Of a DNA stretch of 64,000 nucleotides, positions 2,974-19,219 are shown in pieces. Source of the stretch: an uncultured delta proteobacterium (lineage in GTDB: Bacteria; Desulfobacterota; Binatia; UBA9968); the NCBI GenBank assembly GCA_963771465.1, contig CAVYTU010000017.1:160001-224000 (forward strand), in the 5' to 3' direction. Position 1 is the first letter of the stretch; each line of letters begins with the position of its first letter. The position numbers and the translations under genes are program-made. The notes under the pieces are model-generated. The model saw only the letters and a list, made by a program, of their open reading frames with translations, did not search any database and was not told the DNA's origin.

Positions 2974-3135
2974 ATGAAACGGCGCCTGATCGGTCCAACC
3001 GTCATCCCATCGATGCTCACCGGATTGGTGGCGGATTCTTTGTACTTCGATGATTCGCCGCAGAGCGATGTGAATGTTCTGGCGAAAAGCGTATTAGTTT
3101 TTGGCGCGGTTTTTACCCTGCCCTCGACCCAATGA
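2974..3135 (+). CDS. putative 53-aa small ORF
   Basis: MKRRLIGPTVIPSMLTGLVADSLYFDDSPQSDVNVLAKSVLVFGAVFTLPSTQ*; stop overlaps next start as ATGA; no clear SD. Confidence 0.25.
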   Translation: MKRRLIGPTVIPSMLTGLVADSLYFDDSPQSDVNVLAKSVLVFGAVFTLPSTQ

Positions 3136-4118
3136 ACCTAGCCTGGCTTGACGAATATCTCCTGCCGATAACCATGATCGTGTTGGTGTTCGCGCTGTTG
3201 TGGTTAGCGATTACCCGTGCGAAGGAGGCCAAGCGGGAAGCTACCCAGGATGCCGAAACGTCGACGCCATCGGCAGCGCAGTCACAGTTGTCGGATATTC
3301 GTCAGGGCGTCGAGTTGGTCGCCGACGCCGAGCCCGCAACCGTGCCATCTCGACGCTATCCCCTGATCCGCCAGCTGACCTTCGGCTTTGGCGCCGTCGC
3401 GATTGTTTTTGGTTTCGCTACCTGCGTGATCGTGTTTGGTTCTATTTCTCGGGTCTACGAAAAGGAACTCACCAGCCGCACCCAGATCATTACTATCGGC
3501 TTGAGTGATCTCGTGACGCGCCGACTGGCGACCAAGTCGGTACAGGGGCTTGCCAACGACGTGGAAAAATATGCGGCGATGAAAGCGGTGGCCTATGTTT
3601 ACGTGGAAAACGCCAAGGGCGCGATCATAGCTAACGCGCCGGAAGAATTGCCAAGATATCTAATTCGAGACTTTCCAAGGTCAGCGGAGCGGGCGCTCGG
3701 CGGCGTCAATATGCGCTATCGCGGTGCGGACGTATACGAAGTTGCCAATCGAATCGGCGGCGTCAATACGGGCTTCGTTCACTTGGGGATTTGGCGCGAC
3801 GCGATCGCCGCGGAGGCGCGCATGGCGCTCTTGCCGATGGTGGCAGGGATCGTCGTGCTGATCCTCGGCATCACCGCCATGTTTATCGTCATCGCGCGGC
3901 GCTTGAACCGTCCCCTGCTCGACCTGGTCGTTCAAGCCGATCGTATCAGCCGCGGCGATTTCACCGTCACCCTGAGCTCAAAGCGTAGCGACGAGATCGG
4001 CGACATCGCGCGCTCCATCGAGCGGCTGCGGGCTAGCTTGTTCGCGGTCGTGCGCCGGTTGGATCAAGCCAACTCAACCGAACAGACGGATAAACTTCCG
4101 GCTCGTGGCGACCGTTGA
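3132..4118 (+). CDS. membrane protein with extracytoplasmic sensor region and C-terminal HAMP domain, no output domain
   Basis: 3 hydrophobic segments; RPLLDLVVQADRISRGDF...SDEIGDIARSIERLRASL near C-terminus. Confidence 0.8.
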   Translation: MNLAWLDEYLLPITMIVLVFALLWLAITRAKEAKREATQDAETSTPSAAQSQLSDIRQGVELVADAEPATVPSRRYPLIRQLTFGFGAVAIVFGFATCVIVFGSISRVYEKELTSRTQIITIGLSDLVTRRLATKSVQGLANDVEKYAAMKAVAYVYVENAKGAIIANAPEELPRYLIRDFPRSAERALGGVNMRYRGADVYEVANRIGGVNTGFVHLGIWRDAIAAEARMALLPMVAGIVVLILGITAMFIVIARRLNRPLLDLVVQADRISRGDFTVTLSSKRSDEIGDIARSIERLRASLFAVVRRLDQANSTEQTDKLPARGDR

Positions 4119-4162: not shown

Positions 4163-5392
4163 ATGAAAAAGCGCATTGCCGCAGTATTTCTTGCGATAAC
4201 ACTCACGGGCGCCCTGCTCGGGTGTGTGCTTTATTACGCGGCCAACTATGAGCAGGGAGCGATGACGCTGGCGGAGCTGAGCGCCGGCAGCCCTTCGGCG
4301 CCCGACGCGAATCCAAATCTCGCCTTTCTTTCGCAGCCGATTCAAAAAGTCGGCGCCTGGCTCAGCGAACTAGAAGCCGAAGTGATTATCTATAGCGTGG
4401 TCGGTTTTGTCGCGCTGTTAATTATCCTGCGGCTGCTATTGGCGGTGCTGCGGGCAATCAAAGATGAAATATCGTTTCGTGCCCAGGAGCGTAATAGCTA
4501 TCGATTTGCGGCTATGCCAGCCGATACGTTCACGTCGAGGCAAACACCGTTAATGCGCATACTGCCTAAAGACACCGTCCCCAGCGCTGAAGCCGAGACG
4601 CGAGTCTACGAGGCACGGTTCGCTGACACCATGCGTCATGGCGTAGACGCTTTGTGGTGGTATCTGCGCGAGCATGGGAAAGGCTTGAGCGGCAGGTTGA
4701 TTTTGACCTTTACCGGAGTGGTTACCCTGTTTGGCATAATTACCGCGGCGTTGGTCTACCATACCCTGACGCAATCCCTAACCGGCCACGCGATCCAACG
4801 CGCCAGGATCATTGCCCTGAACGTCAGCGACAGCGCGCCGGCCTATCTGATGAAGCAAGACGCGGATACGCTGCGCGAGCTGCTGCGCAAACAAGTCAGC
4901 AACCCGCCAATGGCGTATGTCCTAGTTGAAAGGCGCTCGGGAGAGATTTTCGCGCACAGCTTCGCCGCGTTGCCCGACGAGGTGCAAAACCAGAGCGCCG
5001 CCAGCGGCGCTGCCATTGCGGCGCAGCGCACCTTGCGTGTCGGTCAAGGCATGGTCTACGAAGTCTCGGTGCCTATCCTCGATGGCCAGCGCGGCGCGGT
5101 GCGCGTCGGTATTTGGCAGGATGATGTCGATACCGCGATCAGCGAAACCATCGCGCCCCTGATCAAGTGGCTGGTACTGATCGTTATCGGCGGCGCTTTG
5201 ACAGCGCTATTCCTGGCGTGGAACATCAGCCGGCCCATCGTCCGATTGGTGCAACTCGCGCGACGCATCAGTCGTGGTGACCTCGATGCGCCGTCGCTCG
5301 GCATGGAGGACAAGACCGAGTTCGGCGAGCTGTCGCGCGCTCTGGAGCGCATGCGCTCGAGCGTCAAAGCCGCTGTGATACGCTTGGGTTGA
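4163..5392 (+). CDS. membrane protein with C-terminal HAMP domain, paralog of the upstream gene
   Basis: RPIVRLVQLARRISRGDLD...EFGELSRALERMRSSV then stop; shares AYV.VE...G.I.A and YEV......G.V..GIW.D blocks with 3132-4118. Confidence 0.8.
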   Translation: MKKRIAAVFLAITLTGALLGCVLYYAANYEQGAMTLAELSAGSPSAPDANPNLAFLSQPIQKVGAWLSELEAEVIIYSVVGFVALLIILRLLLAVLRAIKDEISFRAQERNSYRFAAMPADTFTSRQTPLMRILPKDTVPSAEAETRVYEARFADTMRHGVDALWWYLREHGKGLSGRLILTFTGVVTLFGIITAALVYHTLTQSLTGHAIQRARIIALNVSDSAPAYLMKQDADTLRELLRKQVSNPPMAYVLVERRSGEIFAHSFAALPDEVQNQSAASGAAIAAQRTLRVGQGMVYEVSVPILDGQRGAVRVGIWQDDVDTAISETIAPLIKWLVLIVIGGALTALFLAWNISRPIVRLVQLARRISRGDLDAPSLGMEDKTEFGELSRALERMRSSVKAAVIRLG

Positions 5393-5415
5393 GAACTATT
5401 GGCTTTTTTTCAACG

Positions 5416-5690
5416 CTACTTTCCGCTGTAGAGTTCTGTCACGAAGCCGCTGCTTTCTAGTTCCTGCAGAAATCGATTGTCGTAGAAATCTTTCGGGTTC
5501 GCCGCCGGTGCCTTGGCGTGGTCGGTCACTGACAACGCGGCGCGGATCGCTTCGTCGGTGACGTAGGGAACTTTGGGAAACAGCGGCGCAAAGCTCTTGT
5601 AGGCTTCGTCGATGATCTCCTGATCCTTCGAGGCGAGATATTTGCCGATCGCCCGCTTCGAGATCTCCGGCTGTTCGAGGAAAACCGTAG
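5416..5690 (-). pseudogene. C-terminal remnant (~90 aa) of an NMT1/SsuA-like substrate-binding protein
   Basis: Reads TVFLEQPEISKRAIGKYLASKDQEIIDEAYKSFAPLFPKVPYVTDEAIRAAL...NPKDFYDNRFLQELESSGFVTELYSGK*; no start, in-frame stop upstream. Confidence 0.7.
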
Positions 5691-5802
5691 GCCGGTGACC
5701 ATCGAAAATCGCAGCCCGACAAAAGTCTCTCGGTGAAGCGCCGCTCTTGTGTCCTGGGGAGCGTCTTCATCACCGGCTCTCGGGTAGTTTGCTGCGAGGT
5801 TT

Positions 5803-6651
5803 TTACTTAAAAGGTTTGGTAGCGCGAAAGCCTAGGTCGCGATACCAGTCCCGCACCTCGGCGAAGCCGTCGACGCGGGTAAAGTAATCGTCTTGGCCGC
5901 CGCTGTTTTTTAATTCCACGAGCATGGTGCGTGCCGCCGCCAGCGCGGCCATCGAGACGCTCGAAGTTACCAACGCTACTTTGAAGCCGAGGGCGAAAAA
6001 TTCCGCCAGCGTGTTGATACCGGCCCGTGGCCATGGATTCATCAGCGGCACCGCGACGTTGGCGCCGAACCATCGGTGCTCCTCGGCGTCACTCAGATGA
6101 ACGCCGATGGCGTCGATGCCGGCGCTGACATAGGCGTCGATACGCTCGAGCACTTGCTCACGGGATTCGGCGGCGCGGGCGTCGCAGCGCACGGCGAGAA
6201 TCATCGCCGCGTCGGAGCGCGCATCGGCCATCGCTTTGATCTTGTCGACCATCTCGGCAACGGTGACGGTCGGCCGCTCGGCGTCGATGCCGTTCTGGCC
6301 GAACATACTATCTTCAAAGCGGATACCGGCGACGCCGGCGCGTTCGAAGGCGCGCACAGCGCGCGCGGTTTGCAGCGGTCCGCCGTAACCGGTCTCGCCA
6401 TCGACGAGCATTGGGATGGTGAGAACTTCCGCGATGGAGGTCGCTCGTTCGGCCATCTCTGTCATTGTCACCATGCTGCAATCAGGCAGCACGCGGCTGC
6501 GATGCATGCCGTTGCCGGCGAGGTGAAAAAGCCGGTAGCCGCAATCTTCGACTAAGCGCGCGAACATGGGGTCGGGCGCGCTTGGGGCGATGATCCCGTC
6601 CGACGCTTTGAGGAGTTCCCGGAACTGCAGCCGTTTGTTGTGATCGTTCAT
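5803..6651 (-). CDS. isocitrate lyase/PEP mutase superfamily enzyme (oxaloacetate decarboxylase-like?)
   Basis: LVDGETGYGG, AGIRFED, LAVRCDA motifs; lacks the K(K/R)CGH loop of ICL/PrpB. Confidence 0.8.
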   Translation of the reverse strand: MNDHNKRLQFRELLKASDGIIAPSAPDPMFARLVEDCGYRLFHLAGNGMHRSRVLPDCSMVTMTEMAERATSIAEVLTIPMLVDGETGYGGPLQTARAVRAFERAGVAGIRFEDSMFGQNGIDAERPTVTVAEMVDKIKAMADARSDAAMILAVRCDARAAESREQVLERIDAYVSAGIDAIGVHLSDAEEHRWFGANVAVPLMNPWPRAGINTLAEFFALGFKVALVTSSVSMAALAAARTMLVELKNSGGQDDYFTRVDGFAEVRDWYRDLGFRATKPFK

Positions 6652-6655
6652 TGGG

Positions 6656-7603
6656 CTAGTTTCCTACCGGCGCGAACAGTTCGCTCAGCGCCGGCCGATT
6701 GGGGATGTAACCTTGCTCGTTGGCGTACTGGACGAACTTCTCCAGCACGACGCGATTTTCCGGCGTGAGGCCGTGACCCCAAGGATTTGCTCCGAATAGT
6801 TCTTCCTCTTCCTCCAAGATCAACACTGCCGAAGGAAATGCCGAGCGCTTGGCGTAGTCGTAGGATTTGCGGCAAAGCGATTCGGCTTGAGTGAATGCTT
6901 CAAGCAGGCTCGAGACGAGCCAGGGATTCTTCTCGAATAACGATTGCCTGACGACCAGCGTATGAGTGATCGGAAAAATTCGGGTCGTGCGGAAATAGTC
7001 GTTGACTGTGCGCCGCGCATCTTGGAAGAGACGGCGAATGCGCGGATCTTTATTGCGAAACGACGGCACGATGTTGGGTGGGATCAACGCGTCGATTTCA
7101 CCGCGCAGCAACAGCGCTTCGGTCGGCTCGTCGACTACGCTAATCTTTATTCCAGCCGGCGGCTGATAGCCGGCCCGTTCGGGTGCCGAAGTAAACCACT
7201 CGCAGTCCTGCGGCCGCACGCCGTAGTATTCTTGCAAGATTCCTCTCGCCCACAGGCCGACGGTCAGTCGATATTCGTCCATGCCGATTTTTTTGCCCTT
7301 CAAGTCTGCCGCACGTTCGATTGCCGATGATGTCGAGCAGAAGATGTAGGGATGAATTTGCATTCTCAGTGGAAAGATCGGCAGCGCGACCACGGGCTCG
7401 TTGCGTGAGCGCGCCATCATGTACCAGGAGAGCGACATCTCGGCGATGTCGAATTCTTCGTACACCGGCCGCATACAGGCTTCGCCGCTCTCAGCCCGGC
7501 GCGGTTGCAGATTGATTCCTTTTGCCGGCACTTCGCCGGCAAGCAAAGGCCGGGTGCGGTGATAGTCGGCGAGCATGATCGTCAGGTCGAGGGATTGAGA
7601 CAT
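6656..7603 (-). CDS. 4,5-dihydroxyphthalate decarboxylase-like protein (PBP fold), paralog 1
   Basis: DYHRTRPLLAGEV, FDIAEMSLS, ALPIFPLR, WARGILQEYYGV, FPITHTLVVR, PWGHGL; start MSQSL; no signal peptide. Confidence 0.8.
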   Translation of the reverse strand: MSQSLDLTIMLADYHRTRPLLAGEVPAKGINLQPRRAESGEACMRPVYEEFDIAEMSLSWYMMARSRNEPVVALPIFPLRMQIHPYIFCSTSSAIERAADLKGKKIGMDEYRLTVGLWARGILQEYYGVRPQDCEWFTSAPERAGYQPPAGIKISVVDEPTEALLLRGEIDALIPPNIVPSFRNKDPRIRRLFQDARRTVNDYFRTTRIFPITHTLVVRQSLFEKNPWLVSSLLEAFTQAESLCRKSYDYAKRSAFPSAVLILEEEEELFGANPWGHGLTPENRVVLEKFVQYANEQGYIPNRPALSELFAPVGN

Positions 7604-7622
7604 ACGGGCTCCTTCTAATGAT

Positions 7623-8603
7623 TCAACGGCTCTGGCCTGTGGCTTTGGCAAGGAATTGCCGGGTAAAAAATTTGTCCGGGCCGCCGAATTTTTTTGCTTC
7701 CGCCTCGATCCGCGTCGCGGTGATGAGCGAGTCGATATCATCCCGGGTGATTGAGATCGAGTAAAGCGTGGCGAATTGGTTGATCACCTGGCGCACTGTA
7801 GCCGGATCGCCGAATTTGTTTTTCTTGATGACGGCGGCGGCGACTTTCTCCTGATTGCCGCCGAGAAAATCCAGTCCGCGCTTGAGCGCCCGCAGCATGG
7901 CGACGATGCCCTCTGGATCGGTTTCGATCTTTTGTTTGCTGGTAACGATGACGACGAAGGGAAATCCCGGCATGACACTGCCGATATCGAAGAGCGATGA
8001 AAAACCTTTTCGTTCGAGCTCCAGTCGTTCCAAAAAGGAAAATGGCGAGGCCTGAATCTTGCCGGTCTCCAAAGCCTGGGCGCGGGCCGGACTGTTACCG
8101 ACGCCATAGAGAATTTTATAGTCGCGGTCGCGCACCAAGCCCTTCTTGGCCAAGCCTTCCACGGCGGCGAATTCGGCGACCCCGCCGGGACCGGTGACGC
8201 CGACGACTTTGCCTTTCAAATCATTGATGCCGGTGATTCCCTTGGCGCCGATCAACGTGTAGTCCATGTAAGGCTGCATGCCGCTGATGATTTGCATCGG
8301 CGCGTTTTGCACGATGGCCCGCACCGCGGCGACTCCAGCCACAAGTGTGTACTCCACGCCGCCGCCGACCAGCGCGGCCATCGCCGTGGGACCGCCGCGA
8401 ATCAAAACGGTTTTAACGTCCAACCCTTCGGCGGCGAAGAAGCCAAAATCCTGAGCCACAACCAGCGGCAATGTGCCGCTCAACGTAGGAGTGTTGGAGG
8501 CGAAGTTGACGGTTTTAGCGGCGGCGAAGGCGGCGCCGGCAAAACCGACGATGCTCAATGCCAGCAGTATAGCGAGACCCATTCGCCTTTGGGTAAAATT
8601 CAT
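7623..8603 (-). CDS. ABC transporter substrate-binding protein, NMT1/SsuA/THI5 family
   Basis: Signal peptide (LAILLALSIVGFAGAAFA), GFFAAEGLDV, ALVGGGVE, DLKGKVVGV. Confidence 0.85.
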   Translation of the reverse strand: MNFTQRRMGLAILLALSIVGFAGAAFAAAKTVNFASNTPTLSGTLPLVVAQDFGFFAAEGLDVKTVLIRGGPTAMAALVGGGVEYTLVAGVAAVRAIVQNAPMQIISGMQPYMDYTLIGAKGITGINDLKGKVVGVTGPGGVAEFAAVEGLAKKGLVRDRDYKILYGVGNSPARAQALETGKIQASPFSFLERLELERKGFSSLFDIGSVMPGFPFVVIVTSKQKIETDPEGIVAMLRALKRGLDFLGGNQEKVAAAVIKKNKFGDPATVRQVINQFATLYSISITRDDIDSLITATRIEAEAKKFGGPDKFFTRQFLAKATGQSR

Positions 8604-8625
8604 GGTTCCGACGCTCACTGCCTTG

Positions 8626-9639
8626 CTAAAGTTCACGCGTGCTCTCGGCGAACAGATCTTCGATCTTCGGCTTTTTTGTGATGAGTCCTTGCTCGTGGGA
8701 AAAGTCGATGAGAGTTTGCAGCAATTTCCGGTTGGCTTTGACGCCGTATGGGAACGGATCGCTGCCAAAGAGTTCTTGAGTCTTGAGTAAATATTCTTTG
8801 CCAAAAAAGAGTCCCGACGGAATGCTTTCCGCCAACCTGGCGTTGAACTGTTCCTTGGCTTTGACAAAGGCGCTGTACAGGTTGAAAGCGACCCAAGGAT
8901 ACTTTCGATGGATGTCGCCGCGAATCGTGTAGGTGTGGTTTACCGGCAGAAATCCCCACTTATCGAAGAACCGTTTGCCTTCGGCGATGCGGTCGGTAAA
9001 GAGTTCTTTCACTTTGCTCCAGTCGTGCTCGGAGCCGGTAATGCGATGGGAGCGGCCGAGCTGGTTGGGCGCGTTTTTCCATGGACTGTTGATCGCCGCC
9101 ACGTCCAGTTCGTGCTTGACCAGCATCGACGCCAAGCTTTGGTCCGGCGGCACGCGCTGGAATGATATTCCTTTGGGCGGAGTAAAACCGGTGACGCCGC
9201 CGTGGCTCATATCCTCAGTGCGCTCCATGTACCAGTCGACCTTGTATTGCGACACGCCGAAGTCGTGTTCAAGAATGCCGCGCTGCCAGAGCGCCGCAGT
9301 TTGTTGATATTCACTGACGCCGATGCGTTTGCCGACGATGTCCTCAGGTTTACGAATTCCAGAGTCGGTGTGGTAGGAAAGCTCGGTGTGAAATAGCCGG
9401 CGGCTGGGAAAAACCGGCAACGCGATCATGTCGAGGCCGCGCTCACGGGCGATCAGATACGACGACATCGACATCTCGCCCACCGGGAATTCCATATCTC
9501 TAAGCTGGCGCAGGAAGGTCTCCGATGGATGCGAGTAAGTCGGCACAATCTCGATCGCTTCAGCCTGAACGATGCCTTTCATCAGCGGCTCGACTCGTTC
9601 GTTGAATGCGGAAATAAAGTTTAAACGTAACTTCGCCAT
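8626..9639 (-). CDS. 4,5-dihydroxyphthalate decarboxylase-like protein, paralog 2
   Basis: GEMSMSSY, ALPVFPSRR, EYQQTAALWQRGILEHDFGV, LPVNHTY, DPFPYGVKANR. Confidence 0.8.
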   Translation of the reverse strand: MAKLRLNFISAFNERVEPLMKGIVQAEAIEIVPTYSHPSETFLRQLRDMEFPVGEMSMSSYLIARERGLDMIALPVFPSRRLFHTELSYHTDSGIRKPEDIVGKRIGVSEYQQTAALWQRGILEHDFGVSQYKVDWYMERTEDMSHGGVTGFTPPKGISFQRVPPDQSLASMLVKHELDVAAINSPWKNAPNQLGRSHRITGSEHDWSKVKELFTDRIAEGKRFFDKWGFLPVNHTYTIRGDIHRKYPWVAFNLYSAFVKAKEQFNARLAESIPSGLFFGKEYLLKTQELFGSDPFPYGVKANRKLLQTLIDFSHEQGLITKKPKIEDLFAESTREL

Positions 9640-9673
9640 TATATCTCCTGCTGGTTACTTCGTCGGGCTCTAC

Positions 9674-10696
9674 TCAACGAAGCTTGAATATTTCGTTATA
9701 GAGTCTAACTAGTCCCTCGAAGTCTTTGTAATCTTCGGGATTCTCCACGACCCGTTTGTAGCCGCGAAAAAGCCGCGGCGGATGAGGCTCGACGTCTTTG
9801 CGCACGGGAATGCGCTGCATGCCGCGCATCATCTCCTGTCCCTCTTTGGACAGGCTGAAGTCATAGTAGAGCCGGGCGGCATTGGGATTGGGCGCTTTGG
9901 CCGCGATCATAATCGGGAAGGCGCTCACCACCGCCGGTTCCAGCGGCACCCAGTCGATGGGCGCGCCCCTGGCCACCATGCGTTCCAAGGTTTGATTGTA
10001 CGCTACGATTAGCGGATATTCTCCTGCCCCCGCCAGTGCGACTCGTTCCGAGTTGCCGCGCATCATGGCGGGATCGATGGCCGCGATGCGGCGAAAGTAG
10101 CTGATCGCTCTCTCTCGCCCCCATGCGCGCATCAGCCCTTGCAGCATACCGTACGCCTCGTTGTCGAAGGACAGTTGGCCGCCTTTCCATTTTGGCTCGA
10201 CGAGCGCCTCGTAGGTCCTCGGCACATCTTCGCGTTTGACCAGCTTGGTATGCCATCCCAAGACGTATGTGACGACATAATAAGCTGTCCAGTAGCCTTC
10301 CTTGTCGACCAGATCTTCGTCGATTGCCTTGGCTTCCGGAGAGCGATAGGAAGCCAATAGTTTTCGCTCCATCAGCGGCGCATACATCTCGGCTCGTCCG
10401 GCAACGACATCCCAGGCGTGACGGCCAGCGCGCGCCTCGTTGAGAATCTTATTGAGCAGCGGACCGCCGCCGGTGCGAAACAGGGTGGGCTTGATGAACG
10501 GATATTTTTTCTGAAAGCGATCCACGACCTCCTTGCTCTGATCGAGAGTCATGGTGGTGTAGAAAATCACTTCGCCTTCTTTTTTTGCTCCTTCGATCAA
10601 GCGCGGATCGGGGTTCGCTTGCGAGCTGGCGAACTCGACGGCAAAAATCAATGGCAGAATGAAAGCGACGATGGCGGTGTGGCTTCCTACTTTCAT
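9674..10696 (-). CDS. extracellular solute-binding protein (Fe3+/thiamine/AfuA-like family)
   Basis: Signal peptide; LIEGAKKEGEVIFYT, P.TYEALVEPKWKG, AKAPNPNAARLYYDF.LSKEGQ. Confidence 0.85.
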   Translation of the reverse strand: MKVGSHTAIVAFILPLIFAVEFASSQANPDPRLIEGAKKEGEVIFYTTMTLDQSKEVVDRFQKKYPFIKPTLFRTGGGPLLNKILNEARAGRHAWDVVAGRAEMYAPLMERKLLASYRSPEAKAIDEDLVDKEGYWTAYYVVTYVLGWHTKLVKREDVPRTYEALVEPKWKGGQLSFDNEAYGMLQGLMRAWGRERAISYFRRIAAIDPAMMRGNSERVALAGAGEYPLIVAYNQTLERMVARGAPIDWVPLEPAVVSAFPIMIAAKAPNPNAARLYYDFSLSKEGQEMMRGMQRIPVRKDVEPHPPRLFRGYKRVVENPEDYKDFEGLVRLYNEIFKLR

Positions 10697-10732
10697 GACT
10701 TCCCTCCCAGCTGAGGCGACGTTGTCGATCGA

Positions 10733-11743
10733 TTATGTGTCAAGCGTGCTCTCGGCGAAAAGTTCTTCGACTTTCATTTCGCGCGGCGTCAAACCTTGCT
10801 CGTGGGAATAGCTGGTGATGGTGTCGAGCATGGCGCGATTGGCTTTAATGCCGAACGGAAACGGGTCGTCGCCGATCAGCGCGCGCGTAGTCGCAAGATA
10901 TTCCTGTCCAAATATCAGTGCTGTCGGAATCTGCTCCGTCAATTTTTCCTGGGCAAAGGCCTTGGCGCGGACGAAGCCTTCATAGAGTTTCGCGGCGAGC
11001 CAAGGATGTTTGCGGTGAATATCGCCGCGGATGATGTAGGCGTGATTGACCGGTAGAAAGCCATGCTGCTGGTAGAAGCGCGCGCCTTCGGCCATGCGGT
11101 CGGGAAACAGCGGCTCGATCTTGCTCCAATCGCCTTTGCCGGTGATACGGCTGGAGCGGTCGAGCGTGTTGGCTTGCAGCACCCACGGGCTTGAGACGTG
11201 GGCGACATCGAGTTCGTTATCGAGGATCGTCGAGGCAAGGCTTTTATTACCGGCGATACGGTTAAAAGATATTCCCGGCGGCGGCCTGAAACCCGTCGCA
11301 CCGCCGTGGCTCATCTCTTCGCTCCGTTCCATGTACCAGTGAATCTTATATTGCGACACGCCGAAGTCATGTTCGAGAATGCCGCGCAGCCACAACGCCG
11401 CGGTCTGCTGATATTCCGCCACACCGAGACGTTTTCCCGCGAGGTCTTGCGGCTTCGTGATGCCTGAGTCGACGTGGTAGGACAGTTCGGTTTGAAACAA
11501 GCGGCGGCTCGGAAACGCCGGCAGGGCGATCATGTCGGCTCCCTGCGAGCGGGCGATCAGGAACGACGACATCGACATTTCCGCCACTTCGAATTCGCCG
11601 AACTTCAACTGGCGCCAAAATGTTTCCGCCGGGTGCGAATAGGTCGGAACGAGACTAACGCCGTCGAGCTTGATCGTGCCGTTCATCAGCGGCTCGACCC
11701 GCTCGTTAAAGGCGGAAATGAATCCTAGGGTCAACTGTTCCAT
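10733..11743 (-). CDS. 4,5-dihydroxyphthalate decarboxylase-like protein, paralog 3
   Basis: Highly similar to 8626-9639 (FISAFNERVEPLM, TYSHP.ETF.RQL, EYQQTAALW.RGILEHDFGVSQYK). Confidence 0.8.
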   Translation of the reverse strand: MEQLTLGFISAFNERVEPLMNGTIKLDGVSLVPTYSHPAETFWRQLKFGEFEVAEMSMSSFLIARSQGADMIALPAFPSRRLFQTELSYHVDSGITKPQDLAGKRLGVAEYQQTAALWLRGILEHDFGVSQYKIHWYMERSEEMSHGGATGFRPPPGISFNRIAGNKSLASTILDNELDVAHVSSPWVLQANTLDRSSRITGKGDWSKIEPLFPDRMAEGARFYQQHGFLPVNHAYIIRGDIHRKHPWLAAKLYEGFVRAKAFAQEKLTEQIPTALIFGQEYLATTRALIGDDPFPFGIKANRAMLDTITSYSHEQGLTPREMKVEELFAESTLDT

Positions 11744-11754
11744 TGCGGTCTCGA

Positions 11755-12441
11755 TTATTTATCGAAGCCGTCGATGGACCAGATGTCGTAGAGCAGTTCC
11801 ATGCGGCGAAACGTCGCTTTGTAGGTTTGCTCCTGGAGCGCGGGTGAGTGGAGGTAGCGAACAGCGATCTCCTCGGCGAGACTGCTATGCTCTTCATCCG
11901 CTTCGGTATGGACAGTGAAGAAGCGCACGTCGTCCGGCTTCATATTGTAGTTTTTGAGCAAACCGTTGCCGATCGCTGCCGCCGCCGGACCGAAAGTTCC
12001 CTCCGCGCCGATCTGGATCGACATGACCACGAACCAGGGCAAAGTGTGGATGATGAGCTCGACGTAATAAAGATGAGCTGCGGTTGACGGACGCAGTTCG
12101 GCGGACTCCAATTGTTGCTGGGTTAGACCGATGGCGTTAGCGAAGCGAATCGCCAGTTCGTTATGACCGGCGCTACCGGTATCCATGCCGCGAGTCTCTT
12201 CTTCGACCACGCCCCAGAGCTTTTGAGCGATCTCCGGATCGTTGCAGGCGAGATAGCGCAGCATGGCGATGCGCGGCACCGCGGCGCGAAACTGATAGTC
12301 TTGAAGCGCCCAGGCGCGAATCTGCTCCATGGTCGCCGTACCGTTGCAGACGGCTTTCAAGAAAGGATGTTTAATGCGGATTTTGGGAAACGCTTGGATA
12401 TCTTTCTTGAGCTGTGCGACGAATTCTGCGGATGTGGCCAT
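11755..12441 (-). CDS. heme-oxygenase-like diiron protein (TenA/PqqC/CADD fold)
   Basis: HPFL N-terminal motif, EEE...H, GAEG, FFTVHTEADEEH matching the CADD-type metal ligand pattern. Confidence 0.8.
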   Translation of the reverse strand: MATSAEFVAQLKKDIQAFPKIRIKHPFLKAVCNGTATMEQIRAWALQDYQFRAAVPRIAMLRYLACNDPEIAQKLWGVVEEETRGMDTGSAGHNELAIRFANAIGLTQQQLESAELRPSTAAHLYYVELIIHTLPWFVVMSIQIGAEGTFGPAAAAIGNGLLKNYNMKPDDVRFFTVHTEADEEHSSLAEEIAVRYLHSPALQEQTYKATFRRMELLYDIWSIDGFDK

Positions 12442-12510
12442 GGTGAAACTCCTCTTAGTTTTTGCACCAATTTCTGGAGTGCATAGCTTATCAATCCAGG
12501 ACTCCGGTGA

Positions 12511-13239
12511 TTACTCCAGTTGGTTTTTGCTTCCTTGCAGCCGGCTGACGAAATACTCCCAACCGCGCATGGGGAAACGTTGGTCGGCATTGTACACTTC
12601 CAACTCTTCCGCGGTCAGATAGCGCGGCTCGCCGTGTAGCAGCGCGAGATGATTCCACTCGCCGAGCATGGCGAGCCGGGTCGTGCGTTCGATGACTTGC
12701 TCGATGCTTTCGCCGACGACGGCGTCGCCGTGGGAGCGCAGTAAGACCACCGGGCCGGCGCCGAGCGCGGCGGCGAGCTCGTTGCCGCGCTCCACCGTGC
12801 GCACCAAGCCGATGCCTTGATAGATGGGCGGGCCGTCGGCGGAAAGAAATTTACCGTAGTGATGCATCGGCTTGAGCTTGATCGGCAAGACGCTGAAGAT
12901 CGTGCTCCACTTGGAATGGGTGTGCGCGACACTGACGATTTCTGGACGAGCTTTGAAGATGCACGCATGAATCGGCCACTCGTTGGGCGGCGTCTTGGCG
13001 CCGTCGAGATAGTTGCCGTCGAAGTCCTGCATGATCAGGCGATCGCGAGTCACACAGCCGGGACTAACGTTGGCGATGGTAATAAACGCATCCGCGCCGG
13101 GCACGCGCACGCCGATATGACCGTAGCCGTCGGTGACGCCCTCGTGATCGAGAATGTGACAGGCGGTCATCAACTTATCGGTGAGCTCTCTAAGATCGGA
13201 TGAGTCAATGGTAGGAATATCTTTGCGATCGGCGGGCAT
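12511..13239 (-). CDS. class II aldolase/adducin family protein
   Basis: GHIGVR, EWPIH, AHTHS, LRSHG. Confidence 0.85.
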   Translation of the reverse strand: MPADRKDIPTIDSSDLRELTDKLMTACHILDHEGVTDGYGHIGVRVPGADAFITIANVSPGCVTRDRLIMQDFDGNYLDGAKTPPNEWPIHACIFKARPEIVSVAHTHSKWSTIFSVLPIKLKPMHHYGKFLSADGPPIYQGIGLVRTVERGNELAAALGAGPVVLLRSHGDAVVGESIEQVIERTTRLAMLGEWNHLALLHGEPRYLTAEELEVYNADQRFPMRGWEYFVSRLQGSKNQLE

Positions 13240-13286
13240 GGCTGCTCCTTCAAACTGAACGCGTGATGAATTAATTTATTGTCGCG

Positions 13287-13315
13287 ACTCTAGTGGCCGG
13301 TTATCGCTCTGTCAA
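13287..13315 (-). promoter_or_regulatory. internal sigma70-type promoter candidate
   Basis: Minus strand TTGACA-17 nt-TAGAGT; -35 overlaps the stop of the upstream aldolase gene. Confidence 0.55.
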
Positions 13316-14034
13316 GCAACGCGCCGCTCGCCCAGCCGGCTCAAAAAATATTCCCATGGGCGTGCCGGAAAAGAGCGGTCGCCGGCGAAAGTCGCCAGTT
13401 CCTCTTCGGTCAAGTAGTCCGGCCCACCGTGGACCGCCGCTAAGTGCGACAGCTCGCCGAGAAACGCGAGCTGCACCGTGCGCAGGATAGCTTGCTCGAC
13501 ATTGGCGCCAACCACTGCGTCGCCGTGAGCGCGCAGCAAAGCGGCTGCGCCGTCTTTCAATGTGTCGGTTAGCGCCTGGCCTCGCTCAACGGAAGTGATC
13601 AGCCCGGCTTTGGGATAGATAGGCGCGCCGCCGACAGGAAGAAATCTGCCGTACATATGCACCGGACGCAGGCCTTTTTTCAGCACGCTAAATAGCGCGC
13701 TCCATTTGGAATGGGTGTGGCATACGCTCATGACGTCCGGGCGCGCGCGCATGATGCACGCGTGAATCGGCCACTCGTAGGGCGGCGGCTTGGCTCCGCC
13801 GAGAAAGTTGCCGTCGAAGTCCAGCAAAACGAGCTTGTCGAGTGCAGCGCAGCCGGGGCTCACCTGGGCGATGGTGAGAAGCGCGGCCTGTTCCGGTACG
13901 CGCGCACTCACATGGCCGAAGCCGTCGGTGATACCCTCGCGGTCGAGGATCAAACAGGCGTTGACGACTTTCGCTTTAAGCTCATTGAGTTCGCTAGAAT
14001 CGAACGCAGGTCCTGTGTATCGCGCGCTGGCCAT
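13312..14034 (-). CDS. class II aldolase/adducin family protein (paralog)
   Basis: GHVSAR, EWPIH, CHTHS, LRAHG; start MASAR after GAGGAG. Confidence 0.85.
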   Translation of the reverse strand: MASARYTGPAFDSSELNELKAKVVNACLILDREGITDGFGHVSARVPEQAALLTIAQVSPGCAALDKLVLLDFDGNFLGGAKPPPYEWPIHACIMRARPDVMSVCHTHSKWSALFSVLKKGLRPVHMYGRFLPVGGAPIYPKAGLITSVERGQALTDTLKDGAAALLRAHGDAVVGANVEQAILRTVQLAFLGELSHLAAVHGGPDYLTEEELATFAGDRSFPARPWEYFLSRLGERRVA

Positions 14035-14735: not shown

Positions 14736-15947
14736 ATGAAATTCGGAATCGACCGACTGATCGAAGAGCCGACGCTGCGAAAGCCGCTCGCTGGAAAGCG
14801 TGTCGCTTTGCTCGCACATCCGGCGTCGGTGACACGCGACTTGATGCATTCACTTGATGTCTTGGCGGCGCTGCAAGAAATTAAGTTAACTGCGGCGTTC
14901 GGCCCGCAGCACGGACTTCGCGGCGACAAACAGGACAACATGATAGAGTCGGCCGATTTTAATGATCCGGTGCATGGCATTCCGATTTTCAGTCTCTACG
15001 GGGAAGTGCGCCGGCCGACGGCCGCGATGATGGAGAGCTGCGATGTGCTGCTCGTCGATCTGCAAGATGTCGGCTGCCGTATTTACACGTTTGTCACGAC
15101 GCTTCGCTACGTTCTTGAAGCTGCCGCGCAGCACAAGAAAGCTGTCTGGATACTCGATCGGCCCAATCCGGTTGGGCGACGGGTGGAAGGATTGCGCTTG
15201 CGACCGGGTTGGGAAAGTTTCGTCGGCGCCGGGCCGCTGCCGATGCGCCACGGTCTGACACTCGGCGAACTGGCGAAATGGTTTGTGCGCACACTGAAAC
15301 TAGATGTGGAGTGCGAAGTCATCACAATGGAAGGTTGGAATCCCGCGGCCGCACCCGGCTACGGTTGGCCGCTCGGCGAACGAAGCTGGGTAAATCCCAG
15401 TCCCAACGCTCCGAATCTCTCGATGGCACGCTGTTACGCCGGAACTGTCATGCTCGAAGGCACGACGCTGTCGGAAGGGCGCGGCACGACCCGCCCGCTG
15501 GAACTCTTCGGCGCACCGGACATCGACCCACGCGCGTTGTTGAAAAAGATGGCATCCCTGGCGCCCGAGTGGCTGCGCGGCTGCCGCCTGCGCGAGTGCT
15601 GGTTTGAACCGACCTTCCACAAACACGCCGGTAAGCTATGCGCGGGCATTCAAGTCCACGTCGACGGTCCGGGTTACGATCATGAATGGTTCCGACCTTG
15701 GCGACTGATGGCGTTGGCATTCAAAGCACTGCGTATTCTTCGACCCGATTATGATCTCTGGCGTGACTTTCCGTATGAATACGAGCACGACCGGCTCGCG
15801 ATTGACTTGATCAATGGTAGCGAGCTGTTGAGAGAGTGGGTCGATGATCAAGTCGCGATGCCGGACGATCTCAATGCGGCGGCGATACTTGATGAGAAGT
15901 CATGGCAAGATGAACAGGCACCCGTGCTGATCTACGATAAGGCCTAA
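14736..15947 (+). CDS. DUF1343 / exo-beta-N-acetylmuramidase NamZ-like protein
   Basis: FGPQHG, DLQDVGCRIYTF, LDRPNP, MRHGLTLGELA, SEGRGTTRPLE. Confidence 0.85.
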   Translation: MKFGIDRLIEEPTLRKPLAGKRVALLAHPASVTRDLMHSLDVLAALQEIKLTAAFGPQHGLRGDKQDNMIESADFNDPVHGIPIFSLYGEVRRPTAAMMESCDVLLVDLQDVGCRIYTFVTTLRYVLEAAAQHKKAVWILDRPNPVGRRVEGLRLRPGWESFVGAGPLPMRHGLTLGELAKWFVRTLKLDVECEVITMEGWNPAAAPGYGWPLGERSWVNPSPNAPNLSMARCYAGTVMLEGTTLSEGRGTTRPLELFGAPDIDPRALLKKMASLAPEWLRGCRLRECWFEPTFHKHAGKLCAGIQVHVDGPGYDHEWFRPWRLMALAFKALRILRPDYDLWRDFPYEYEHDRLAIDLINGSELLREWVDDQVAMPDDLNAAAILDEKSWQDEQAPVLIYDKA

Positions 15948-16170: not shown

Positions 16171-16887
16171 ATGTTTACGGACAAAATCGAAGCAAAAGAT
16201 TTCGACAAGATGGACCCAGAGTATAAAGAACTTTTGGGCCATGTGTTGGCCATACAAGCGGACTGCGAGATCGGTGGACCGCATCTTTACGTCGAGACCA
16301 TGTTACCGGCGGCGCCGACGAAGCTGGACCAACTCATCATCGCGCGCACTGCGGCGGAAGAGATCGATCACTTTCGCAAAGTCGCCCGCGTCGCCGGTGA
16401 TATCGGCGTCGATGTGTCGTTCGTGTTGAGCCAACCCAATGAGAAGCGCTTCGTCGACACGTTTCGCGGCTTGATCACGACTTGGGAAGACAACGCGGTT
16501 TTTGGTTTTTTGATCGACCGGGTTGGCCGCTATCAATTGGAGGAATTTTACGATTGTAGTTACCTGCCGCTACAGCGGATTCTTCCCGACATTGTCACTG
16601 AGGAACTCGGCCACATCGAGTATGGCTACAACAAAACCCTCGAACTGATTCAATCGGGGGATGAAGGAAAGGCAAGGACGCAAAAGGCGGTCGACTACTG
16701 GTACGTGCGCGCCCTCGATATGTTCGGCCGTAGCGCCTCGATCAAATCCGAGCGCTATCGGTACTGGGGTCTTAAGCGCCGGTCCAATGACCAGGCGCGC
16801 CAGGACTATATCAACGAAGTCGGGCCGATCCTCACACAGATGGGGTTGACGGTTCCCGATCCAAACAAAGGCCGTCGTTACATGTAA
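16171..16887 (+). CDS. ferritin-like diiron protein, PaaA/PaaC/BoxB-related
   Basis: QADCE, APT, EEIDH, FLID, CSYLPL, EELGH, QKAVDYW...LDMFG. Confidence 0.8.
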   Translation: MFTDKIEAKDFDKMDPEYKELLGHVLAIQADCEIGGPHLYVETMLPAAPTKLDQLIIARTAAEEIDHFRKVARVAGDIGVDVSFVLSQPNEKRFVDTFRGLITTWEDNAVFGFLIDRVGRYQLEEFYDCSYLPLQRILPDIVTEELGHIEYGYNKTLELIQSGDEGKARTQKAVDYWYVRALDMFGRSASIKSERYRYWGLKRRSNDQARQDYINEVGPILTQMGLTVPDPNKGRRYM

Positions 16888-17134: not shown

Positions 17135-18160
17135 TCAATGACTCGCCGTCAACGCCAATTTGACAATTCGCTGCACCAAGCGCGGAAAGCTGACGCCGGC
17201 TTTGCTGGCCGACTGGGCAAACTCGTCGTCGCGGTCGAGATTGGGATTGGGATTGGCTTCGAGGACAACGATTTCTCCCGCCGGGGTAACGCGCAGGTCG
17301 ATGCGGCCGTAGCCGCGAATGCGCAGCGCGCGGTAAACCGCCTTGCAGATTTTTCCGATGCGTTGGTCGGCGCCGTTGGGAAACGGTTCGGCGAAGACGT
17401 TTTGAATGCCCCAGCGTTTGCGGTAGGCGTCATCCCATTTGGCTTTGAACGTGGAAAATTTTGGCTGATCGTCCGGCATTTGAGTGAAGATCACTTCACG
17501 AAAGGGAAACACGCGCAAACTTTCGTTGCCGAGCAAGCTGACGTAAATTTCACGCCCTTCGATAAATTCCTCCGCTAGCGCGGGCTGGTTCATGCGCTCA
17601 TGAATGAAACGAATCCGATCCTCGAACGCTTCGTCAGTTTCGACAAACGAGTCCAATGAGATGCCGTAGGACGCTTCGTCCTCGGCCGGTTTGATGAACA
17701 GCGGAAACTTGAGCCGGCTTGGCCGTTTGATCGTCGCGCCGGGCGAATAGACCGCGAAATTCGGCACGCGAATTTTGTGATAGGCGAGGAGTTCTTTTGC
17801 CATACCCTTGTTCTTGCACAGAGTCAGCCCCGTCGGGGTCGAACCCGTGTAAGGCACGCCCATCATTTCCAGAAGTCCGGCGACGTTGCGGTCGTAGGCG
17901 GAGACTTCGTTGAAATGTTCGGTGAGATTGAACACCACGTCGGGAGGGTTGGCTTTGATCTCGTCGATGATCAGCGACGCTTCGTTCCAGATGCCGAGGG
18001 TGCGCACTTCGTGGCCGAGTTGTTTGAGCGCGGCGATCACATGGGCTTCGGCGGCGAAATCATCGGTCTTTAGTTCTTTGCTGAAATCTTGATCCGCCGG
18101 CGGCGTGCCGGCGCTGCCGAATAGCACGAGGACTTTGTAACGTTTCTTAGTGCGAACCAT
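17135..18160 (-). CDS. D-Ala-D-Ala ligase-like ATP-grasp enzyme
   Basis: PDVVFNL.E, GVPYTGS, FPLFIKP..E.ASYGI, EEFIEGRE, GYGRIDLR, LEANPNP. Confidence 0.85.
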   Translation of the reverse strand: MVRTKKRYKVLVLFGSAGTPPADQDFSKELKTDDFAAEAHVIAALKQLGHEVRTLGIWNEASLIIDEIKANPPDVVFNLTEHFNEVSAYDRNVAGLLEMMGVPYTGSTPTGLTLCKNKGMAKELLAYHKIRVPNFAVYSPGATIKRPSRLKFPLFIKPAEDEASYGISLDSFVETDEAFEDRIRFIHERMNQPALAEEFIEGREIYVSLLGNESLRVFPFREVIFTQMPDDQPKFSTFKAKWDDAYRKRWGIQNVFAEPFPNGADQRIGKICKAVYRALRIRGYGRIDLRVTPAGEIVVLEANPNPNLDRDDEFAQSASKAGVSFPRLVQRIVKLALTASH

Positions 18161-18163
18161 CGG

Positions 18164-19219
18164 CTAGCGATCCTTGAACTTGCCGGTCAGACGATAATGC
18201 GACGCCAGCGTCGCCAGATAAGCGGCGATCTCCACGGCGGCGGATTCTTCCCGGAGCCGCAGATCGAGCTCGGCGCAGCGCTCGGTGAGCGCGCGCAGCA
18301 ACCGGCTAATCGTGAACTTGGGCTCGCCTGTGGAGGCGGATACGGCATTGAGAATCAATTTGTTGGCGCGACGCAAAAATGCCGCCGCGCGCTCGCCGTG
18401 GGGTGAGCCGTTGGCTTCGGCGAAAAGCCGTTTAAGATCGGCGTCGAAAAAATCCGGGAACTCCTCGGCATAAGTGCGCCGCCGCCTTTTATAATGGGCT
18501 TCCAGGCGGGAGCGTAGGCGCGACGCATCGCTGATCTTGGCTTTGGAAAAGACCAGCGGCGGCTTGCCGGCAAGCCGCTGCATCAAGTCGTCGACATATT
18601 CGAGTTTTTCCAGCGCCTTCCAGCCTTTGTATTGATGGCGCCAGTCGATGTCCGGAGTGAGCCAGATGGCGATGGTTTCGGCGAAGTCTTCCTCCGGGTG
18701 GCTTTGGGCATAGTAGCCGTCGAGATGGCGCACGAAGCGCTTGCTGTAGGGACGGGCGCGAAAGCTTTCGGAATATTCCAACGACGGCGGGCCAAAAAGT
18801 TGTTGCCAACGTTTGTCCTTGCCGAACAGATAGGCGTGGTTGAGCACGTGGCCCATCTCATGGCGCAACAGACGCAGACACCACGGTTCGGTGTCGCCTT
18901 CAACTTCCATCATCATTTTCGCTTCGAGTTTTTTTAAACGCGGATGTGCCAGGTAGAAGGGGATGGCGATGGTCGTCGAACCTTCGGGGCAAAACCATTC
19001 GTCGCCGAGATAACAGATCGGTTTGAACGAAATACCTTTGGCCGAGAGCTCGGCGTAGAATTTGTCGATGCGGGATTCGAGTTCCGTGCCGGCGATCTTG
19101 AGCTTGAGATCGCAAATACGCGTTCCGAGTAACTCTTCGTCGGTCAGCGTCGCTAAGTCGAAGTTGGCGTTAGCCGCCTGTACGGAAGCGGTCTTGCCCT
19201 TGTCCGATGAGCTTTCCAC
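18164..19219 (-). CDS. putative zinc-binding metallopeptidase
   Basis: RHEMGH (HExxH), YAQSHPEEDFAET; GTG start; 3 nt from the ATP-grasp gene. Confidence 0.8.
   Translation of the reverse strand: MESSSDKGKTASVQAANANFDLATLTDEELLGTRICDLKLKIAGTELESRIDKFYAELSAKGISFKPICYLGDEWFCPEGSTTIAIPFYLAHPRLKKLEAKMMMEVEGDTEPWCLRLLRHEMGHVLNHAYLFGKDKRWQQLFGPPSLEYSESFRARPYSKRFVRHLDGYYAQSHPEEDFAETIAIWLTPDIDWRHQYKGWKALEKLEYVDDLMQRLAGKPPLVFSKAKISDASRLRSRLEAHYKRRRRTYAEEFPDFFDADLKRLFAEANGSPHGERAAAFLRRANKLILNAVSASTGEPKFTISRLLRALTERCAELDLRLREESAAVEIAAYLATLASHYRLTGKFKDR

Follow-up and report, generated by a model that had tools for sequence, protein, structure and literature searches.

We analyzed a 64,000-nucleotide stretch of DNA from an uncultured member of Candidatus Binatia (hereafter, the window; GenBank assembly GCA_963771465.1, contig CAVYTU010000017.1, positions 160,001 to 224,000) and found that nine minus-strand genes, which fill window positions 5803-14034, are assembled around a conserved core of two to three genes. 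The core pairs a class II aldolase-fold gene (ALD2) with the gene for a heme-oxygenase-like dimetal protein (HDO) and, in many relatives, with the gene for a homologue of the solved 4,5-dihydroxyphthalate decarboxylase 9jp7 (PDC). We consider the chances about even that the cluster is an island of the aromatic-acid catabolic type. With confidence that is likewise evenly divided, we propose that it represents a catabolic module that is specific to the order within Candidatus Binatia and that has been expanded locally, in the window's genus, through duplication and the insertion of genes for solute-binding proteins (SBPs). The conserved ALD2-HDO-PDC core may carry a decarboxylation funnel that is linked to uptake, depends on oxygen and acts on hydroxy- or hetero-aromatic carboxylates, a proposal that we judge to stand at the midpoint between probable and improbable.

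Gene content and density of the array

A preliminary description, made from the sequence alone, had reported nine co-oriented, closely spaced genes, and the open reading frame (ORF) listing of the window agrees with this. After three over-long ORFs had been trimmed to starts giving sensible N-termini, the intergenic gaps from g1, at the high-coordinate end, to g9 came to 72, 69, 11, 36, 34, 22, 19 and 4 bp. Gaps of this size on one strand suggest a single transcript. In a separate scan, the numbers of promoter-like sites (six; 4.0 expected) and of terminator-like sites (13; 11.7 expected) were uninformative. The array holds two class II aldolase-fold genes (ALD), one HDO gene, three signal-less PDC genes, two genes for secreted SBPs and one gene of the isocitrate lyase (ICL)/PEP-mutase type, and the families assigned in the preliminary description were borne out by Pfam and 9jp7 matches. 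The domain scan also agreed with its statement that Rieske, dihydrodiol dehydrogenase, permease and ATPase genes are missing from the cluster: none of these domains was found by Pfam in the nine genes, nor in 34 other scanned window ORFs of at least 150 amino acids (aa), save in a distant MFS gene at 36784-38097.

The genome of the window (6.9 Mb in 19 contigs) carries many relatives of these genes. A tblastn search with the window proteins found 191 SBP6-type, 126 NMT1-type, 27 PDC, 20 aldolase-fold, nine ICL-type and eight HDO places, and a profile search found 15 heme-oxygenase (HO)-like places of the CADD/PqqC/TenA type. When the 381 tblastn places were distributed at random 2000 times, no placement gave the observed seven enzyme genes (maximum, four) or all six families (maximum, five) per 9 kb. 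The best 9-kb window of the real genome outside the cluster contains four enzyme genes.

Conservation of the core among relatives

We compared 80 loci that carry an orthologue of the HDO gene g3 (63-96% identity), taken from species-representative genomes, and counted as orthologues those proteins that share 55% identity or more across 60 or more residues. ALD2 adjoins the HDO gene in 50 of the 80 loci, and a PDC gene of the first or second type (PDCa or PDCb) does so in 45. The remaining genes were counted in the 46 close loci, in which HDO identity is at least 80%. Of the 40 close loci that extend far enough upstream, 18 have the other aldolase-fold gene, ALD1; the 25 with at least 6.5 kb downstream include PDCa in 22, PDCb in 17, the NMT1-type binding protein in 15, the third PDC (PDCc) in 14, the SBP6-type binding protein in five and the ICL-type gene in one. 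An orthologue of g9 adjoins the array in only two of the 80 loci (L060 and L107), and in L060 the array also ends in the ICL-type gene. We conclude from these counts that the array consists of a conserved two- to three-gene core with genus-level accretion, and is not a nine-gene pathway. In other words, the co-conservation expected of the candidate operon proposed in the preliminary description was found for the core but not for the full set of nine.

Loci of the window's own genus keep the ALD-ALD-HDO-PDC order and orientation up to the second PDC in eight cases out of eight. The NMT1-type binding protein and the g8 orthologue follow in six of these, the g5 orthologue occurs in four, and the g9 orthologue in none. 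Among loci from other genera of the family, which were fetched around the PDC orthologue, the ALD2-HDO-PDC trio was found in six of 11, and the adjacency of ALD2 and HDO persists down to 65% HDO identity (L094-L097, L103 and L121). The second aldolase-fold gene, the extra PDC genes and the SBP genes are additions in the window's genus. The identities within the pairs g1/g2 (57%) and g4/g6 (64%) point to growth of the array by tandem duplication. Of 41 genomes from the genus and order of the window, 34 contain an HDO orthologue, a tally that includes the unpublished genome G005; in 150 genomes sampled across the remainder of the phylum, none was found at E <= 1e-30.

In four loci from long-read metagenome-assembled genomes (L055, L063, L107 and L030), cluster genes are split into two to four collinear fragments, and the HDO gene of L030 has an internal stop. 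These are probably assembly frameshifts rather than pseudogenes. The PDC genes of L055 and L063 at first looked amplified five- to seven-fold, but this was rejected because the copies are frameshift fragments of two or three genes. Fragments of this kind explain the seeming extra copies in three long-read assemblies.

The heme-oxygenase-like dimetal protein

The HDO gene g3 (11755-12441, minus strand, as are all nine genes) encodes a CADD/PqqC-like protein that matched the Pfam families PF14518 Haem_oxygenas_2 (E = 4e-17) and TENA/THI-4/PQQC. Its relatives in the PDB are the p-aminobenzoate (pABA) synthases 9pj4 and 1rcw, together with PqqC. Six of its residues (E82, H93, E147, H178, D182 and H185) are invariant in 11 orthologues (alignment A1; 63-89% identical to the window protein) and align, in that order, to E81, H88, E142, H174, D178 and H181, which we take to be the metal ligands of CADD. 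The aligned positions of g3 thus carry the three histidines and three carboxylates that section 4 of a review of these proteins (PMC13108848) describes as the ligand pattern on the heme-oxygenase-like fold. Two further positions differ from CADD, since Leu28 and Ile157 of g3 align to its Tyr27 and Lys152. An excerpt of PMC9522330 describes pABA synthesis by CADD as a cleavage of the enzyme's own Tyr27, to which Lys152 lies close. Because this sacrificial tyrosine is replaced, g3 is not expected to be a pABA synthase. Moreover, because the six metal-ligand positions are kept and the sacrificial residues are not, g3 should be a metal-binding HDO that acts on a free substrate. The label 'CADD-like' in the preliminary description therefore holds for the fold and the metal ligands but not for the reaction-defining tyrosine.

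The curated models agree with this assessment. The score of g3 was 72 bits against the CADD model TIGR04305 (cut-off 200), and a CADD-type pABA synthase was rejected on this score and on the missing equivalents of Tyr27 and Lys152. It was 43 bits against the PqqC model TIGR02111 (cut-off 240), and PqqC was rejected on this score and on the lack of any passing match in the genome: none of six genome matches to TIGR02111 passed its cut-off, so that no bona fide PqqC was found with this model, and none of 15 matches to TIGR04305 passed. The TenA model matched g3 with an E-value of only 0.006.

Nine arginines (R22, R42, R52, R57, R62, R84, R173, R212 and R213) are invariant over the 228 residues of the same alignment, and would fit a polyanionic substrate. 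An AlphaFold2 model of g3 built from these 11 sequences had a mean pLDDT of 55.3 and a pTM of 0.54, and was too poor for a fold search or for placing the arginines. Near-length homologues number 492 proteins at E <= 1e-10; those listed, at 83-93% identity, carry automatic names only ('PQQ biosynthesis protein C' and 'iron-containing redox enzyme family protein') and gave no functional lead. No fused form of g3 was found among proteins of 400-2000 aa, which is weak evidence.

The aldolase-fold and decarboxylase-type proteins

Upstream of g3 lie the tandem paralogues g1 (ALD1; 13312-14034, 240 aa) and g2 (ALD2; 12511-13239, 242 aa), the latter being the core partner of the HDO. Both matched PF00596 Aldolase_II (E = 2.1e-30 for g1 and 1.7e-29 for g2), with scores of 103.5 and 106.4 bits for the pair against a cut-off of 22.2. 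Their best NCBIfam model was NF053537, the 3,4-dihydroxyphthalate decarboxylase PhtC, with scores (89 bits for g1 and 79 bits for g2) that fell short of its cut-off of 200. The best solved relative of g2 is 2z7b (E = 6.4e-20), and the alignment spans the metal-binding His residues and the C-terminal tail. One Glu and three His residues of g2 align to the metal site of 2z7b and to that of FucA, at residue numbers that we take to be those of its metal site. The PDB relatives of g2 also include NovR (9ryg) and TqaM (9m09).

The three PDC proteins have the fold of periplasmic binding proteins and lack a hydrophobic N-terminal leader, as read from the translations. The first, g4 (PDCa; 10733-11743, 336 aa), matched 9jp7 with an E-value of 1.7e-46 over residues 4-336. 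The second, g6 (PDCb; 8626-9639, 337 aa), is the 64% identical copy of g4 and gave weak Pfam matches to NMT1 and Phosphonate-bd. The third, g8 (PDCc; 6656-7603, 315 aa), is divergent, being about 30% identical to g4, and matched 9jp7 with an E-value of 7.9e-47. The PDC proteins match the decarboxylase at about 1e-46 and the NMT1 model at only 1e-5 to 1e-3, and we assign them, as putative enzymes, to the 4,5-dihydroxyphthalate decarboxylase family. The Protein Atlas entry for g4 gives the same family names only. The excerpts of the dihydroxyphthalate decarboxylase literature that we searched, including those of PMC13040137, did not identify the catalytic residues of 9jp7. Among characterized proteins, those nearest to the PDC proteins (9jp7) and to the aldolase-fold proteins (2z7b and the PhtC model) are decarboxylases that act on hydroxylated (hetero)aromatic dicarboxylates.

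Binding proteins and the lyase-family protein

In contrast to the PDC proteins, g5 and g7 begin with hydrophobic leaders, that of g7 including an Arg-Arg pair. The first (9674-10696, 340 aa) is a secreted binding protein of the SBP_bac_6/PhnS/AfuA type with Pfam matches to SBP_bac_6, SBP_bac_8 and SBP_bac_1 (PF13343, E = 5e-16; PF13416, E = 6.5e-15). The second (7623-8603, about 326 aa from the ATG at 8603) is of the NMT1/SsuA type and matched PF09084 (E = 4.6e-18) and, under the cut-off of the model, TIGR01728 (E = 3.4e-19). No permease and ATPase genes, or DctQM genes, adjoin them in the cluster, and a complete ABC or TRAP operon is therefore lacking there.

Both types of binding-protein gene are extremely expanded in this genome, where many stand in arrays of three to seven, or singly beside an enzyme gene. 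The permease domain BPD_transp_1 gave 118 genome matches, many of them paired within open frames of about 570-615 aa, and DctM gave four. Because these 118 matches face 191 and 126 binding-protein places, most of the binding proteins appear to be orphans. PDC genes elsewhere in the genome usually adjoin one binding-protein gene.

The last gene, g9 (5803-6651, 282 aa), is a peripheral addition that belongs to the isocitrate lyase/PEP mutase superfamily (PF13714 PEP_mutase, E = 3e-33). Where 3eoo (methylisocitrate lyase) and 4iqd carry a catalytic loop reading 'KRCGH' or 'KKCGH', g9 has a shorter loop that contains neither Cys nor His. Because the loop aligned to 'KRCGH' is missing, g9 is not a typical (methyl)isocitrate lyase. 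All NCBIfam equivalog scores of g9 were far under the cut-offs: 165 bits for TIGR02317 (cut-off 354), 83 for TIGR02320 (320), 110 for TIGR02319 (420) and 68 for TIGR02321 (374).

Other genomic contexts of the HDO gene

The HDO orthologue occurs in three architectures, namely, the expanded array of the window's genus, a second arrangement in other genera of the same family, and a third in the sister family. In the sister family (L013 and L098-L127, mostly complete genomes of roughly 3-6 Mb), the HDO gene starts a conserved co-oriented operon and is followed by the large subunit of a CoxL-like Mo hydroxylase (24 of the 80 loci) and an HmfF-like UbiD decarboxylase (20 of the 80), with a TatD-like hydrolase (14 loci) and a protein of the ornithine cyclodeaminase/mu-crystallin family (18 loci) further along. 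In L013 we saw no gene for a small Fe-S or FAD subunit next to that of the Mo subunit. The UbiD protein matched 6h6v with an E-value of 1e-90; this enzyme, PtHmfF, is presumably a furan-2,5-dicarboxylate decarboxylase. The identity of 6h6v as PtHmfF is given in an excerpt of PMC8988006.

In other genera of the window's family (L075, L077, L078, L081, L084-L090 and L092), the region upstream of ALD2-HDO encodes, on the opposite strand, a TAXI-TRAP importer made up of a TAXI binding protein (11 loci) and a DctM-containing membrane protein of about 650 aa. Downstream, this layout continues with a PDC gene on the opposite strand (11 loci), a UbiE/MenG-like methyltransferase gene (nine loci) and, often, luciferase-like monooxygenase genes. 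Amidohydro_2 proteins, of the family PF04909 that we take to include ACMSD, LigW and related decarboxylases, stand beside the HDO in L075, L093, L103 and L121. Further neighbors in scattered loci are TctC binding proteins and proteins of the Asp/Glu racemase family, and two loci have an isochorismatase-family gene and an arylamine N-acetyltransferase gene beside the HDO gene. The constant companion of the HDO is, in other words, a decarboxylase fold for (hetero)aromatic acids, often together with a carboxylate importer.

Within the window's own genome, the families of the array also recombine with ordinary catabolic genes in paralogous islands. One such island (L130; G000:C14:594000-610000) contains an ICL-type gene, a PDC, an NMT1-type protein, an aldolase-fold protein, a CoA ligase and an aldehyde dehydrogenase, and another (L131; C15:877000-891000) has two ALD genes, an ICL-type gene and an NMT1-type protein beside an NMT1-type ABC importer. 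A third (L132; C8:60000-74000) combines a two-domain glyoxalase/VOC-fold protein with an ICL-type gene, a flavin reductase and an SBP6-type protein, with a PDC nearby. In a fourth (L129; C17:713000-727000), a KHG aldolase and an Amidohydro_2 protein accompany a PDC that has another HO-like paralogue next to it.

Comparison with known systems

One resemblance is to the phthalate operons (pht/oph). The three PDC proteins belong to the PhtD-type family (E about 1e-46) and the best model for g1 and g2 is PhtC; PhtD-type (9jp7) and PhtC-type (NF053537) enzymes each remove one carboxyl from a dihydroxylated aromatic dicarboxylate. However, the cluster has neither the Rieske phthalate dioxygenase nor the cis-dihydrodiol dehydrogenase of those operons, and the phthalate pathway was rejected for this reason. 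The cluster instead combines both decarboxylase folds in multiple copies, and the HDO is its only candidate oxygenase. The closest solved relative of g2, 2z7b (Mlr6791), with which it shares the aligned metal-site histidines, is an enzyme that we take to be the 3-hydroxy-2-methylpyridine-4,5-dicarboxylate 4-decarboxylase of vitamin B6 breakdown, but its identity to g2 is low and no other gene of the B6 pathway was found among the nine genes and the scanned window ORFs.

As for g3, the pABA synthases CADD and NePabS and PqqC belong to the same heme-oxygenase-like helical family, and all six metal-ligand positions of CADD are identical. The differences lie in the two substituted residues described above and in the genomic setting, as the window scan found no folate or pqq genes nearby. 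The characterized HDOs (UndA, BesC, SznF, HrmI, AetD, RohS and others), in whose superfamily only about a dozen proteins have an assigned reaction (PMC13108848), share the three-His/three-carboxylate pattern given in section 4 of that review. They act on fatty-acid or amino-acid substrates in biosynthetic clusters, whereas g3 lies among decarboxylase-fold and uptake genes, and no HDO of the UndA, BesC, SznF, HrmI, AetD or RohS type was among the PDB sequence matches of g3.

The sister-family operon, in which the HDO gene precedes those for a CoxL-like Mo subunit and an HmfF-like UbiD, recalls the hydroxymethylfurfural (HMF)/furfural pathway of HmfF (6h6v), which presumably includes a Mo-dependent hydroxylation. 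The reaction would once more be the decarboxylation of a heteroaromatic dicarboxylate. This arrangement of genes is absent from the window, however, and the sister-family locus showed neither a furoyl-CoA synthetase gene nor any further hmf gene. A literature search found no paper on a gene cluster joining a heme oxygenase-like protein with a class II aldolase. The preliminary description had stated that no pathway with this gene set was known; in line with this, a limited literature search, the curated models and sections 4 and 11 of PMC13108848 yielded no characterized pathway that matches the combination of HDO, decarboxylase folds and orphan SBPs. All of the families are known; what is new is their combination, in which the HDO is the sole oxygenase and is accompanied by two to four decarboxylase folds and by orphan SBPs.

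A possible pathway

From the observed gene order, families, metal ligands, conservation and contexts, we infer the catalytic steps, the substrate class and the direction of the pathway, breakdown rather than synthesis. In the proposed scheme, the oxygen-activating dimetal protein g3, the metal enzyme g2 and the binding-protein-fold decarboxylase g4 would act together as the core. An anionic aromatic or heteroaromatic carboxylate would be bound by the secreted proteins g5 and g7 and passed on to a transporter whose genes lie outside the cluster. The HDO would then use O2 to hydroxylate or otherwise oxidatively modify the ring or a side chain, after which g1 and g2, together with the PhtD-like proteins g4, g6 and g8, would remove carboxyls next to or opposite the ring hydroxyl with no further oxidation, each paralogue perhaps serving a different isomer or step. 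The product would enter ring-cleavage pathways encoded elsewhere in the genome. The gene g9 may be a late addition in a few genomes, and a role as a decarboxylase would be a guess. Ring cleavage and transport could come from elsewhere because the genome has six matches to LigB-type and four to intradiol dioxygenases, as well as the permease matches mentioned above; there are also two matches to Rieske alpha subunits.

The preliminary description had proposed the stepwise decarboxylation of a (hetero)aromatic polycarboxylate. Indirect support for decarboxylation of such carboxylates came from the HDO orthologues that lie beside an HmfF-like UbiD and Mo hydroxylase, an Amidohydro_2 protein or a TAXI-TRAP importer, but not for a pathway of nine genes. 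A broader and distinctly speculative proposal, which we do not expect to hold in full, is that the HDO is the ring or side-chain oxygenase of a Rieske-independent Binatia route, in which it acts together with four decarboxylase folds that are unrelated to one another (class II aldolase, binding-protein fold, UbiD and Amidohydro_2) and that strip carboxyls from the benzene-, pyridine- or furan-polycarboxylates of soil organic matter.

Several observations weigh against a catabolic funnel. The cluster has no transporter, regulator, reductase or ring-cleavage gene, and all of its enzymes score under the curated equivalog cut-offs. In 25-30 loci neither ALD2 nor PDC lies beside the HDO gene, so the trio is not obligatory, and with such huge paralogue families part of the adjacency is due to tandem duplication and not to pathway logic. 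A single-copy HDO kept at 63-96% identity across the order would fit a housekeeping or biosynthetic role too, and the characterized HDOs in sections 4 and 11 of the 2026 review (PMC13108848) act in biosynthesis, not breakdown. Finally, the contigs from RNA libraries described below may derive from contaminating DNA.

Three other explanations were considered. If the array is an accretion of paralogues with little shared function, then only g2 and g3, perhaps with g4, would form a unit, or not even these, and their neighbors would act on unrelated substrates. The genome offers ample material for this, with its hundreds of SBP places and its 27 PDC, 20 aldolase-fold, nine ICL-type and eight to 15 HO-like places; g1/g2 and g4/g6 look like tandem duplicates, the presence of g5, g1 and g9 varies even within the genus, and PDC genes elsewhere usually lie beside a single binding-protein gene. 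Nevertheless, none of the 2000 random placements reached the observed density, order and orientation are kept in all eight loci of the genus, the genes are separated by only 4-72 bp on one strand, and ALD2 stays next to the HDO gene down to 65% HDO identity. We therefore regard simple accretion as unlikely.

A biosynthetic or cofactor-maturation pathway, in which the HDO and the aldolase-fold enzyme (possibly an oxidative decarboxylase like NovR or TqaM) build or tailor an aromatic metabolite, quinone or cofactor and the decarboxylases are tailoring enzymes, would be in keeping with the biosynthetic roles of the characterized HDOs (PMC13108848, sections 4 and 11) and with the conservation of the HDO as a single-copy orthologue across the order. 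UbiE/MenG-like methyltransferases (nine loci) and UbiD (20 loci) adjoin the HDO in relatives, and NovR and TqaM are among the PDB relatives of g2. Such a pathway seems improbable, however, given that no NRPS, PKS, prenyltransferase or amino-acid activating enzyme occurs in the cluster or its annotated relatives, that secreted binding proteins, TAXI-TRAP and TctC importers beside the core point to uptake, and that the neighbors vary by lineage while the decarboxylase theme stays. It is also conceivable, but to our mind very improbable, that a known function (pht/oph, CADD-type pABA synthesis, PqqC, thiamine salvage or phosphonate metabolism) is hidden under a distant sequence. Family names do overlap, with 9jp7 and the PhtC model as top matches; TIGR04305, TIGR02111 and TenA match g3 weakly, and Phosphonate-bd, PhnS and PEP-mutase models give weak matches to g4-g9. 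Against this stand the absence of a Rieske dioxygenase and a dihydrodiol dehydrogenase from the window scan, and the failure of g3 and of every genome match to reach the CADD and PqqC cut-offs, with no equivalents of Tyr27 and Lys152 in g3. Thiamine pyrimidine salvage by TenA and THI5/NMT1 was rejected on the poor TenA match and on the far closer similarity of the PDC proteins to 9jp7 than to NMT1, and phosphonate metabolism by PEP mutase and PhnS/PhnD-like binding proteins on the score of g9 with the PEP mutase model (83 bits, cut-off 320) and the absence of g9 from nearly all related loci.

The island comes from widespread, uncultured bacteria whose feeding on complex organic acids is little described. 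It offers a compact set of soluble proteins for study: two SBPs, whose ligands should reveal the substrate, five putative decarboxylases belonging to two folds, and one oxygen-activating dimetal enzyme. A role of the HDO in the breakdown of aromatic carboxylates would widen the chemistry of its superfamily and add a route for the turnover of aromatic polycarboxylates in soil. For genome mining, the two- to three-gene core should be used and not the nine-gene row.

Environment and expression

The sequencing runs containing the window stretch carry soil, rhizosphere or sediment labels. Four metatranscriptomic libraries, each from a different study, contributed contigs that lie on the cluster. 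One RNA library covers 28 of 30 cluster bins; 21 of its 32 contigs are at least 99% identical, and the longest, of 1010 bases, lies over g4. No contig in the four libraries bridges a gene junction with at least 31 bases on each side, where parts without coverage count as no evidence. Because DNA may be present in such libraries, and because the gene junctions are unbridged, these data give only a weak hint that the cluster is expressed.

Neighboring genes

Downstream of g9 lies a doubtful ORF, orf125 (5396-5773, minus strand), which had no Pfam or NCBIfam match; tblastn found no counterpart of it either in the rest of the genome or among the 80 HDO loci. It is followed by two plus-strand genes (4163-5392 and 3132-4118) for neighboring membrane proteins that both end in HAMP, the former also containing sCache_3_2; no kinase, cyclase or MCP output domain was detected in either by Pfam. 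A gene resembling component B of glycine/sarcosine/betaine reductase is also found near the cluster (162-1436, plus strand). On the other side are plus-strand genes for a NamZ exo-muramidase (14736-15947) and a PaaA/PaaC-like ferritin-fold protein (16171-16887). Further upstream, at 17135-19219 on the minus strand, lie genes for an ATP-grasp protein (D-Ala-D-Ala ligase C-terminal domain) and a Peptidase_Mx protein. Genes of these two families abut ALD2 directly in a locus from another genus (L070, 5922-8018). Because the ATP-grasp and Peptidase_Mx genes lie upstream of the cluster in the window and next to ALD2 in that locus, the synteny of the insertion site appears to be conserved.

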